Source: a virus (Duplodnaviria > Heunggongvirae > Uroviricota > Caudoviricetes). From it: DNA of 32,599 nucleotides. This document shows, in pieces, positions 6,574-7,305 of the stretch; the stretch's first letter is position 1; every line of letters begins with the position of its first letter. The notes under the pieces were generated by a model, which did not search any database, had not been told where the DNA came from, and saw only the letters and a program-made list of their open reading frames with translations. Where the stretch lies: positions 1 through 32,599 of the IMG/VR virus record IMGVR_UViG_2713896897_000010; one strand, 5' to 3'. The translations under genes and the position numbers were made by a program.

Positions 6574-6663
6574 GTGCTGGCACTGAAATGCGCGCTGGCT
6601 ATTGCGGCTGTAATGGCAATTTATTGTCTTGTTATTGTTCTTATGGATCACCTTTCTGATTGA
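6574..6663 (+). CDS. 29-aa hydrophobic peptide (MLALKCALAIAAVMAIYCLVIVLMDHLSD), type I toxin-like
   Basis: GGGAGG at 6563-6568, 5 nt upstream of GTG start; strongly hydrophobic single-TM peptide. Confidence 0.35.
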   Translation: MLALKCALAIAAVMAIYCLVIVLMDHLSD

Positions 6664-6764
6664 TTTCATATTGGCGAGGGAGCGGGAGTTAAGTAGAATT
6701 GCTGCGGGTGCTTGAGGCTATCTGTCTCAGGCATGAACACCAACGGCAGATAGAGAAAAGCCCC

Positions 6765-6830
6765 AGTTAACATTACGCGTCCTGCAAGACGCTTAACATT
6801 AATCTGAGGCCCAATCTATGTCTCACAAAT
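6765..6830 (-). ncRNA. sok: Predicted Sok-like antisense RNA complementary to the mok start/hok leader (boundaries approximate)
   Basis: Minus strand carries TTGCCT-17nt-TAACCT promoter-like element (revcomp of ~6833-6861), analogous to the R1 sok promoter position inside mok; inferred from hok/sok architecture. Confidence 0.3.
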
Positions 6831-6874
6831 GTAGGTTAGCCTCTTACGTGCCGAAAGGCAAGGAGAAGCAGGCT

Positions 6875-7030
6875 ATGAAGCAGCAAAAGGCGATGTTAAT
6901 CGCCCTGATCGTCATCTGTTTAACCGTCATAGTGACGGCACTGGTAACGAGGAAAGACCTCTGCGAGGTACGAATCCGAACCGGCCAGACGGAGGTCGCT
7001 GTCTTCACAGCTTACGAACCTGAGGAGTAA
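6875..7030 (+). CDS. hokD: Hok/Gef-family type I toxin (51 aa), embedded in a 70-aa mok-like overlapping frame starting at 6818
   Basis: MKQQKAMLIALIVICLTVIVTALVTRKDLCEVRIRTGQTEVAVFTAYEPEE matches Hok/Gef family (HokD/RelF-like as I recall); AAGGAG upstream; leader resembles plasmid R1 hok/mok leader; no relBE upstream, so locus identity is uncertain. Confidence 0.75.
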   Translation: MKQQKAMLIALIVICLTVIVTALVTRKDLCEVRIRTGQTEVAVFTAYEPEE

Positions 7031-7098
7031 GAGACCTGGCGAGGGAGAAATCCCTCGCCACCTCTGATGTGTCAGGCATCCTCAACGCACCCGCACCT

Positions 7099-7122
7099 AA
7101 CCCGCTTCGGCGGGTTTTTTAT
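7099..7122 (+). terminator. Rho-independent terminator at 3' end of hok transcript
   Basis: aaCCCGC-ttcg-GCGGGtttttt hairpin plus T-tract. Confidence 0.7.
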
Positions 7123-7305
7123 TGTCTGTCGAATACGAAGGATGAAAGATGATCACATATTTGATTATATGCGCGGCAATAAATAAAAGTCATTGCACCT
7201 GCACATTAAATAATCAAATATACAACATGAAATAAATATTCTGTGTATATATATTTTTGCCTCCAGGTAGATATAAACCTCTTTCCTTAGAGACTTGGAG
7301 GCATC

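Follow-up and report, generated by a model that had tools for sequence, protein, structure and literature searches.

Genes and regulatory elements of the locus

The window analysed here, positions 1 to 32,599 of the Caudoviricetes virus record IMGVR_UViG_2713896897_000010, carries at 6671-7121 on its plus strand a hok/mok/sok type I toxin-antitoxin locus of the hokD/hokW type. All canonical elements of such a locus are present and conserved between these positions. A preliminary description of this DNA had called a complete hok/sok-type locus with 5'/3' fold-back and a terminator, listing a 51-aa Hok/Gef toxin inside a mok-like overlapping frame, a leader resembling that of plasmid R1 hok, a sok-like promoter on the opposite strand and a strong terminator. 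This main call was right, and each of the listed parts was recovered. The locus is real and complete, but it is an ordinary copy of a well-known module, and a locus search found matches in 4965 of 5426 complete E. coli genomes.

The toxin is encoded by a 51-aa ORF at 6875-7030, preceded by the SD sequence AAGGAG at 6860-6865. It belongs to the Hok/Gef family by its match to Pfam PF01848 (HOK_GEF; E = 1.2e-23, 82.9 bits with a cut-off of 22) and also matches PHROG 251 (E = 2.8e-33). The ORF is unbroken, its product is exactly HOKD_ECOLI, the HokD (RelF) protein of E. coli, and at least 1000 contigs carry the exact sequence. The toxin gene lies within the mok ORF, 70 codons at 6818-7030 in the same frame as hok, with 57 nt between the two ATGs and a separate SD, GAGG, at 6806-6809. 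The product of mok is a 19-aa extension followed by Hok, an arrangement of the 'MokW/MokC' type that also occurs in hokW and hokC, and the exact 70-aa Mok-Hok sequence is found in about 1000 contigs. Since mok is in frame, a 70-aa extended protein might itself be made. Translational coupling of hok to mok, which is expected of the hok/sok family, would operate from the GAGG, the R1 counterpart of which lies at G105-G108 (PMC9841398).

The hok/mok mRNA promoter was located by a promoter scan at 6671-6699 and consists of a −35 element TTGGCG (6671-6676), a 17-nt spacer and a −10 element TAGAAT (6694-6699). Its geometry agrees with that of an R1-type plasmid locus, in which TATAAT is followed by 6 nt and then by +1 GGCGCTTGAGG. 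The −10 element is conserved in all homologs; the −35 element and its flank are not. This promoter would place the +1 of the hok mRNA at 6706 (+/−1), the position at which the Rfam sok/hok-leader model begins. The leader matches that model (sok, RF01794) over its full length at 6706-6880, with 114.7 bits and a gathering score of 59. The predicted full-length hok (mok-hok) mRNA would therefore span 6706-7121, about 416 nt, with its 3' end within the T-run past an intrinsic terminator. The terminator, at 7099-7121, is formed by AACCCGC-UUCG-GCGGGUU (7099-7116) and a following U-run. It is common to the near relatives and K-12 hokD, and other sequence takes its place in distant loci.

On the minus strand, the predicted Sok antisense RNA occupies 6750-6826, about 75 nt that comprise a 5' tail, a long hairpin and then GGGGCUUUUCUCU. 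The ends of Sok were set from the position of its promoter and by analogy with R1 Sok; for this copy of the module, we infer these ends, the transcription start site and the 3' processing by homology. The predicted 5' tail complements the start region of mok, the Sok region lies inside the RF01794 match, and the fold predicted for a 79-nt RNA has a free energy of −32.5 kcal/mol (z = −5.2). The sok promoter lies at 6833-6861 on the same strand (−35 TTGCCT, 6861-6856; 17 nt; −10 TAACCT, 6838-6833). It escaped a generic sigma-70 scan, since TAACCT is a weak match that agrees with the −10 consensus at only 3 of 6 positions, and was recognised by comparison with sokW and R1-type loci. Its sequence does not differ from that of the sokW promoter region in prophage Sp5, which was validated by mutation: a change in the sokW −10 element of Sp5 hokW-sokW abolished antitoxin activity (PMC8621323).

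Folding of the full-length mRNA

The full-length hok mRNA has an MFE of −171.2 kcal/mol (z = −7.4). Pairing and covariation were counted over 26 homologs, with slid positions and shuffles as controls. Across the whole fold, 88.6% of the 130 mapped pairs form, whereas slid controls reach about 40%. Covariation is seen at 27 pairs, and none of 500 shuffles equalled this result. The closed structure of the full-length RNA is thus seen both in silico and in the covariation of its homologs.

The molecule is closed by a helix between its ends. The translational activator element tac (GGGUGCUUGAGG) occupies 6706-6717 and is nearly invariant in the 26 homologs, while the fold-back inhibitory element fbi (CCUCAAcGCACCC) occupies 7080-7092. 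The two form 12 bp with one bulged C, and this helix is present in the MFE fold with P = 0.97-1.0. It is paired at 96.5% in the homologs against 34-51% in slid controls and includes a compensatory change, a G-C pair replaced by A-U in five Kluyvera-type loci. Homology with distant loci stops at 7092, the end of fbi. The real tac/fbi fold-back is the pairing of 6706-6717 with 7080-7092.

Besides fbi, tac has two alternative partners, the downstream metastable arm and ucb. The metastable 5' hairpin, in which 6709-6718 pairs with a 3' arm at 6724-6733, forms in folds of truncated RNA lacking fbi and is 99.2% paired in the homologs, compared with 34-45% in slid controls. By the concept developed in PMC9841398, it would hold tac during transcription. 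The anti-SD element ucb (AAGCCCCAG, 6758-6766) is the partner of the mok SD in the full-length RNA, where it sequesters GAGG with P = 0.97-0.99; pairing in this helix (helix 4) reaches 89.8%, and 3 of its pairs covary. In the open form ucb is the partner of tac; 98% of cells show the tac/ucb pairing, which is invariant and hence carries no covariation evidence. Without fbi, the open tac/ucb state costs +4.4-5.8 kcal/mol instead of +16.1. A flip of the truncated mRNA to the open form was looked for in silico, and only this narrowing of the energy gap was seen: the MFE structure stays closed, with the metastable hairpin formed and the mok SD still in a helix. The refolding step would therefore follow from the experiments with R1.

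Downstream of the toxin ORF, a local GC-rich hairpin of 9 bp at 7038-7059 (GGCGAGGGA-GAAA-UCCCUCGCC) caps a 3' domain at 7019-7077. It is the GGCGAGGGA-gaaa-TCCCTCGCC hairpin of the preliminary description, is predicted with P = 0.96-1.0, and is 90.4% paired with 4 covarying pairs, a result matched by 0 of 500 shuffles. The R1-type plasmid locus has the same hairpin element after its stop codon. This conserved local stem-loop probably serves as the 3' exonuclease block of the processed (truncated) mRNA, a protective role suggested by PMC9841398, in which a weaker stem in R1 goes with less truncated mRNA and lower toxicity.

These elements suggest a mechanism in which the promoter at 6671-6699 starts the transcript at about 6706 and tac would sit, during synthesis, in the conserved metastable hairpin. 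In the finished RNA, tac would pair with fbi and ucb (here 6760-6766) would sequester the mok SD, permitting neither translation nor Sok binding; the full-length RNA would be inert because tac/fbi closes the molecule while ucb hides the mok SD, a consequence drawn from plasmid R1. Slow 3' trimming would then take off the terminator and fbi and halt at the domain capped by the 7038-7059 hairpin, after which tac would move to ucb and free the mok start region. The unstable Sok RNA, transcribed from its promoter at 6861-6833, would pair at the mok start and lead to RNase III decay, as in R1 and hokW. Once Sok is lost, mok would be translated, in frame with hok, to give the membrane-depolarising Hok peptide.

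Relatives, prophage setting and functional status

The locus is a near-twin of the validated hokW-sokW (ECs_1245) of Sakai prophage Sp5 in E. coli O157:H7, with 93.5% nt identity over 6686-7102 (417 nt). The two share an identical sok promoter region, a 70-codon in-frame mok-hok ORF, the same tac, ucb and fbi, and residence in a lambdoid prophage. They differ in the −35 flank and the terminator, in compensatory changes within the hairpin, and in the toxin, where 47 of 51 residues agree and the four differences are C-terminal (VDYESEK against TAYEPEE). Their positions differ as well: hokW lies near the right end of Sp5, and a search for it in the Sp5 nin region (Sakai 1252000-1270000) gave no match, whereas the locus in the window lies in the nin/Q region. 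hokW-sokW is an experimentally shown type I system: its toxicity, its antitoxin activity and its speeding of lysis and of phage release have been demonstrated (Takada et al. 2021, PMC8621323).

The second close relative is hokD (relF) of the E. coli K-12 prophage Qin, which encodes an identical 51-aa toxin and is 98.5% identical over 6861-7119, a match that spans the hok SD, ORF, hairpin, fbi and terminator. Its neighbourhood is also alike, upstream of rem and Q. K-12 hokD is, however, truncated at its 5' end: relBE-flanking sequence stands in place of the promoter, tac, ucb, the mok start and sok, and no Rfam sok match was found there, whereas the copy in the window is intact. Another in-frame mok is found in hokC (gef)/mokC/sokC of the Escherichia chromosome, which has the same tac and fbi and a toxin 80-82% identical but lacks the 18-nt extension of the Sok-target hairpin and occupies a non-prophage site. 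In K-12, hokC is often disrupted.

More distant are R1 hok/sok (parB) and the R1-type plasmid loci, which follow the same logic and the same order of elements. In these, the −10 element is followed by 6 nt and a +1 from which tac reads GG(C/G)(G/U)GCUUGAGG; then come the metastable arm, ucb, the mok SD, the sok promoter on the opposite strand, hok, a GC hairpin, fbi and the terminator (PMC9841398). DNA similarity to the window is nevertheless confined to a core of about 47 nt. The R1 locus resides on a plasmid, its Sok hairpin is shorter, and R1-type mok is out of frame with hok, with 58 nt between the ATGs instead of the 57 in the window. The identity of R1 Hok is about 44%, a figure given for HokW (PMC8621323).

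Taken together, the locus is, with high confidence, an intact hokD/hokW-type module, a moron that sits in the nin/Q region of a Rac-like lambdoid prophage. Genes for a RecE-like exonuclease, NinB, Q, a holin, an endolysin, terminase and RalA make up its context, and hok holds the same position in annotated phages and prophages. The preliminary description had set this prophage location against one downstream of relBE. The prophage part stands, as phage genes lie on both sides, and the contrast does not, since the relBE-hokD of K-12 itself lies within the cryptic prophage Qin. Enrichment of hok in prophages is documented in a preprint (bioRxiv 10.1101/2025.08.07.668861).

Toxicity of this Hok and its neutralisation by Sok would be predicted because the protein is HokD/RelF and is identical at 47 of 51 residues to HokW, which is toxic and neutralised by sokW (PMC8621323). 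The payoff within the prophage is likely retention, faster lysis and phage release on induction, or both, by analogy with hokW-sokW. Activity should not be assumed, because several chromosomal hok/sok loci are reported to fail at post-segregational killing; the introduction of the same preprint cites chromosomal hokA, hokB and hokC as unable to mediate it. The locus could accordingly be structurally intact and functionally silent: a relic, domesticated or in decay, that in its host neither mediates post-segregational killing nor assists lysis. Its relatives include decayed copies: K-12 hokD is without the whole leader, and the hok of a related prophage, L001, has a premature stop (TAC to TAA). 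The prophage may itself be defective, as the stretch from recE to the nin region showed no genes for immunity or replication. Such silence is nonetheless unlikely, given that all regulatory elements are intact and visibly under structural constraint, that nothing interrupts the toxin ORF, whose product is HokD itself, and that activity in the native prophage has been shown for the near-identical hokW-sokW (PMC8621323).

An intact module that is the complete form of hokD has little value beyond correct annotation. RefSeq annotates a lone 'hokD' CDS at homologous sites; because the locus is the intact form of hokD and a near-twin of the validated hokW-sokW, hok, mok and sok are better annotated together. 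The useful correction lies in the positions of the elements, with tac at 6706-6717, fbi at 7080-7092 and, apart from both, the hairpin at 7038-7059 as a stem-loop with a probable protective role.

The 11-nt repeat and sequences flanking the toxin gene

The preliminary description had drawn its fold-back from an 11-nt sequence, TGGCGAGGGAG, that does occur twice and exactly, at 6672-6682 and 7037-7047. In that reading the 5' TGGCGAGGGAG belongs to the hok mRNA and acts as a tac-like partner of the hairpin's 3' arm TCCCTCGCC (7051-7059), so that the hairpin region serves as fbi. As isolated duplexes, this pairing and tac/fbi are about equally stable (−20.4 and −19.3 kcal/mol), and the chance of such a repeat is about 2% when the 466-nt region is taken alone. 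In a window-sized sequence, however, chance would give about 3.9 exact direct repeats of 11 nt within 500 nt; 9 were observed, and this one does not exceed chance. The 5' copy consists of the −35 element and the first spacer bases of the hok promoter, 24-34 nt upstream of the conserved RNA start at 6706, and homology with distant hok loci begins only at about 6692. At this site the nearest relatives with a shared flank have TTGGCGAGGTGA or TTGGCGAGGTAA, and their flank does not covary with their hairpins. The 5' flank is missing from all distant loci, from the validated hokW locus and from the closest relative, L061, which has an identical hairpin.

Folding the mRNA from about 6670, the check proposed for this pairing, also speaks against it. 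With the transcript start set to 6670, the 5' copy and the 3' arm pair with P about 0 because the 3' arm is already taken by the adjacent 5' arm, and imposing the pairing costs +13.3 kcal/mol. Over the 26 homologs, 6673-6681 and 7051-7059 pair in 46% of cells, compared with 44% in shuffles and 31-40% in slid controls. After the folding from 6670, the forced pairing and the homolog counts, the proposed pairing was rejected, and it can be regarded as very improbable. The true helix is that of tac with fbi; the 11-mer repeat plays no part in the proposed mechanism, and its 5' copy is promoter DNA that resembles the hairpin arm by coincidence. A short exact repeat beside a hairpin is a weak basis for long-range RNA pairing, and transcript boundaries and covariation should be checked first.

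The 3' end of the locus also bears a resemblance to IsrK. A sub-threshold Rfam isrK match covers the hok 3' UTR at 7039-7120 (31.3 bits, E = 1.2e-4), and three other hok loci give similar sub-threshold matches (30.6-33.2 bits), which could mean that this part is an IsrK-like Hfq-binding sRNA and not just a 3' UTR. All of these matches fall far under the gathering score of 50 (RF01394), at which no IsrK was found in the whole 32,599-nt window, and the alignment depends on the generic shape of hairpin, spacer and terminator. L001 carries a true isrK (75.5 bits) at another site, downstream of Q, with a C4 antisense RNA next to it. The resemblance was thus rejected as generic hairpin-plus-terminator similarity, and an sRNA of this kind is scarcely to be expected here.

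Directly upstream of hok lies a module of about 265 nt with a conserved SD+GTG 29-aa hydrophobic ORF (6575-6663). It is highly doubtful that this module was inserted upstream in this lineage, that it supplies the hok −35 element and that read-through transcripts carrying the 5' 11-mer compete for the 3' arm of the hairpin. Were it so, hok mRNA stability would respond to prophage induction, through transcripts of the module or phage early read-through, as a lineage-specific extra layer of control tying a second small membrane peptide to hok. The upstream ORF, read as 29 or 48 aa, had no match in Pfam, PHROGs or NCBIfam, and a query with its 48-aa form matched only 8 clusters, all from Escherichia.

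Anatomy and relatives of the hok/sok locus

The toxin frame, a 51-codon ORF read from the sequence (ATG at 6875, end at 7030), lies within a 70-codon mok-like ORF that begins at 6818 and ends at the same position, confirming the overlapping arrangement proposed in the preliminary description. That description left the relation between the frames open. The two share one frame with 57 nt from ATG to ATG, so that the mok product would equal Hok with a 19-residue N-terminal extension. Assignment of the predicted toxin to the Hok/Gef family is upheld by matches of the 51-aa product to Pfam Hok/Gef (E = 1.2e-23) and PHROG 251 ('MokW-like host killing') and by its exact identity to UniProt HOKD_ECOLI. 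This 51-aa sequence is present on at least 1000 contigs and the exact 70-aa mok-hok product on about 1000. The Rfam sok model RF01794, which spans the hok leader, matches 6706–6880 over its full length with 114.7 bits (gathering score 59), bearing out the hok-like leader of the preliminary description. Matches occur in 4965 of 5426 complete E. coli genomes, where they are annotated hokD, and in 102 phage and 1467 plasmid records.

The closest relatives are hokW-sokW, K-12 hokD and hokC/mokC, the last sharing the in-frame mok. hokW-sokW, from Sakai prophage Sp5, is 93.5% identical over window positions 6686–7102 and has the same 70-codon in-frame mok-hok ORF. The stretch carrying its sok promoter is identical to that of the window, which supports the sok-like promoter described on the opposite strand. 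hokW-sokW is an experimentally established type I system in which the toxin stops growth and sokW neutralises it; it also helps lysis and, after mitomycin C, raises phage release twofold (PMC8621323). In K-12, hokD is a truncated derivative that matches only 6861–7119 (98.5%), all DNA upstream of that part having been exchanged for relE-flanking DNA. No Rfam sok was found at K-12 hokD, and the window thus holds the intact form of this gene. K-12 relBE-hokD is itself part of a cryptic prophage, Qin, where it is upstream of rem and Q, so that a prophage setting and a position downstream of relBE, which had been opposed, are not true alternatives. Judged by sequence, every defining feature of the hok/sok family is present. 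The locus is already known in kind and is nothing new; the gain from re-examination is that tac and fbi, the 5' and 3' fold-back elements, are now correctly placed and a hairpin is reassigned.

Several variants accompany these comparisons. The window differs by a 1-nt indel from loci of the Rac, R1 and Kluyvera types. The indel lies at 6857–6860, within the loop that separates the sok −35 from the hok Shine-Dalgarno (SD) sequence (...GAAAGG-CAAGG...). It turns the sok −35 from TTGACC into TTGCCT and shifts the mok frame: in the Rac record and R1-type loci the two ATGs are 58 nt apart and mok is out of frame, in the window and hokW they are 57 nt apart and it is in frame. Both states are common in nature, which agrees with the published view that what counts is translation of mok, not its product (PMC9841398). 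The Tyr47 codon TAC (7013–7015, within GCUUACGAAC) has the context UUACGAA; a survey preprint reports that TadA recodes hokD mRNA here by A-to-I editing, so that Cys replaces Tyr, as also happens in hokB (bioRxiv 10.1101/2025.08.07.668861). The same codon is TAA in the related record L001, shortening Hok to 46 aa. Two complete loci stand in tandem, about 560 nt apart, in Enterobacteriaceae bacterium MGYG-HGUT-00110 (L029, 759–1155 and 1321–1717), both with full Rfam sok matches. Hok at 96–100% identity is also found on very short contigs assigned to 'Acinetobacter idrijaensis' (L018, 275 bp) and 'Xanthomonas pisi' (L023, 431 bp, whose DNA is 95% identical to the window); in these non-enterobacterial assemblies, E. 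coli or phage contamination is most likely.

The predicted promoter and the 11-mer repeat

A promoter scan located a promoter-like site, TTGGCG (6671–6676) and, after 17 nt, TAGAAT (6694–6699), followed by 6 nt and GGGTGCTTGAGG. An R1-type plasmid locus has TATAAT, 6 nt and GGCGCTTGAGG; the positions of its G4-C5-T6 and A70-G71-C72 agree with how the mRNA is numbered in PMC9841398. This shared spacing places the probable +1 at 6706, exactly where the Rfam sok model begins. Alignments between the window and distant hok loci are confined to about 6692–7092.

The 11-mer TGGCGAGGGAG occurs exactly twice on the plus strand, at 6672–6682 and 7037–7047, and the 3' copy forms a hairpin, GGCGAGGGA-gaaa-TCCCTCGCC, at 7038–7059, both as previously described. 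The proposal that the 5' copy pairs with the 3' arm of this hairpin to lock the mRNA does not survive. On its own the repeat is weak evidence. Across the window, chance would give about 3.9 exact 11-mer direct repeats spaced within 500 nt, and 9 were observed. Taking this 466-nt region by itself, such a repeat has a chance of about 2%. With +1 at 6706, the 5' copy would be the −35 hexamer and first spacer bases, promoter DNA rather than RNA. Even in a transcript from 6670 this pairing comes out at a probability near 0, and 13.3 kcal/mol are needed to force it. Across 26 homologs, 46.1% of its alignment cells are paired, against 44.4% when shuffled and 31–40% when slid, with no covariation above controls. 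The nearest relatives with the same upstream flank carry TTGGCGAGGTGA or TTGGCGAGGTAA, and variation in their hairpins does not follow that of the flank. L061, the closest relative at 98.4% identity, has exactly the same hairpin as the window; its Sp5-type flank (gTTTGCGggaaaaggagagttaagTAGAAT) has no 5' copy, and hokW likewise has none.

Upstream, an unannotated ORF (6565–6663, plus strand; SD GGAGG, 5 nt, GTG) encodes a 29-aa hydrophobic peptide, VLALKCALAIAAVMAIYCLVIVLMDHLSD; 8 nt separate its end from the hok −35. The ORF recurs in records L001, L002 and L056 and in phages HannyBb, Tritos, Evi and mEp460, with synonymous and conservative changes that keep the ORF. No match was found in Pfam, PHROG or NCBIfam. 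Among phage records only 4 have it, each with hok alongside; among proteins it falls into 8 Escherichia clusters, and two of these bear the annotation 'membrane protein' (29 aa). The ORF belongs to a ~265-nt module missing from L061, and a lineage-specific role for this module and the 5' 11-mer in read-through transcripts is highly improbable.

The predicted fold-back lock and the 3' hairpin

Folding 6706–7122 (−171.2 kcal/mol, z = −7.4) did reveal a 5'/3' fold-back, at a different place: GGGUGCUUGAGG (tac, 6706–6717) closes the full-length RNA with CCUCAAcGCACCC (fbi, 7080–7092). The 7038–7059 hairpin is local here and in a transcript starting at 6670. Pair probabilities are 0.97–1.0 for both elements. 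In the 26-sequence alignment, which covers loci of Escherichia, Shigella, Kluyvera, Pseudocitrobacter, Erwinia and others, 96.5% of tac/fbi cells are paired (slid, 34–51%), with G-C replaced by A-U in five loci and several G-U intermediates. The local hairpin reaches 90.4%, a value attained in 0 of 500 shuffles, with four pairs changed on both sides. The whole fold of 130 pairs reaches 88.6% (slid, about 40%) with 27 covarying pairs. Pairing of tac with the metastable 5' arm reaches 99.2% (slid, 34–45%; one pair changed on both sides). Pairing of tac with ucb, the anti-SD element, reaches 98% (slid, 23–66%); these pairs are invariant, so covariation is uninformative. In the full-length RNA, ucb (6760–6766) pairs with the mok SD region (6804–6810) at P = 0.97–0.99. 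The predicted terminator was found at 7099–7121 (AACCCGC-TTCG-GCGGGTT, then a T-run).

With these elements, their complementarity, conservation and covariation observed, the anatomy of the locus is the same, element for element, as that of the R1 model (PMC9841398). By this model, a metastable 5' hairpin would hold during transcription, after which the tac/fbi lock and ucb/SD sequestration would keep the full-length RNA closed. Trimming at the 3' end would yield a truncated RNA, shielded from exonucleases by its last stem-loop, that refolds to the tac/ucb stem. Sok would bind it, leading to RNase III decay, and loss of Sok would permit mok-coupled hok translation. Without fbi, the open tac/ucb form costs +4.4–5.8 kcal/mol instead of +16.1; the MFE of the truncated RNA stays closed, so the refolding step draws on R1 experiments and not on these folds. 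The predicted Sok (minus strand, about 6826 to 6750; −32.5 kcal/mol, z = −5.2) consists of an unpaired 5' tail, complementary to the start of mok, and a long hairpin after it.

The 7038–7059 hairpin is most likely the protective 3' stem-loop of the truncated RNA, since it is the first GC hairpin past the stop codon and caps the 7019–7077 domain just before fbi. The R1-type plasmid locus has the same element after its stop codon. The hok 3' UTR (7039–7120, plus strand) also gives a sub-threshold Rfam isrK match of 31.3 bits, as do three other hok loci (30.6–33.2 bits). A genuine isrK (75.5 bits) lies in L001 at 6535–6611, downstream of Q, with C4 antisense RNA and its a1b1 target; none of the three was found in the window at gathering threshold.

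The prophage neighbourhood

A RecE-like exonuclease VIII (3057–5489, minus strand), NinB (7590–8189), a Q-like antiterminator (8475–9017), holin, endolysin, terminase and RalA indicate a Rac-like lambdoid prophage. The nin-region genes (5705 onward) come almost directly after the RecE-like gene (gap 5489–5705), and the stretch between the two has no evident repressor, O- or P-like ORF; the immunity and replication module may have been lost. In annotated phages and prophages, homologous hok loci are found at this same nin/Q position, and prophages are documented to be enriched in hok (bioRxiv 10.1101/2025.08.07.668861). RalA, the antitoxin sRNA of the Rac ralRA system, lies at 1557–1735 on the plus strand (RF02694; 209.2 bits, gathering score 170), overlapped by a minus-strand ORF (1553–1813) that is a RalR candidate. 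Together with hok/sok, this gives the prophage two type I toxin-antitoxin loci.
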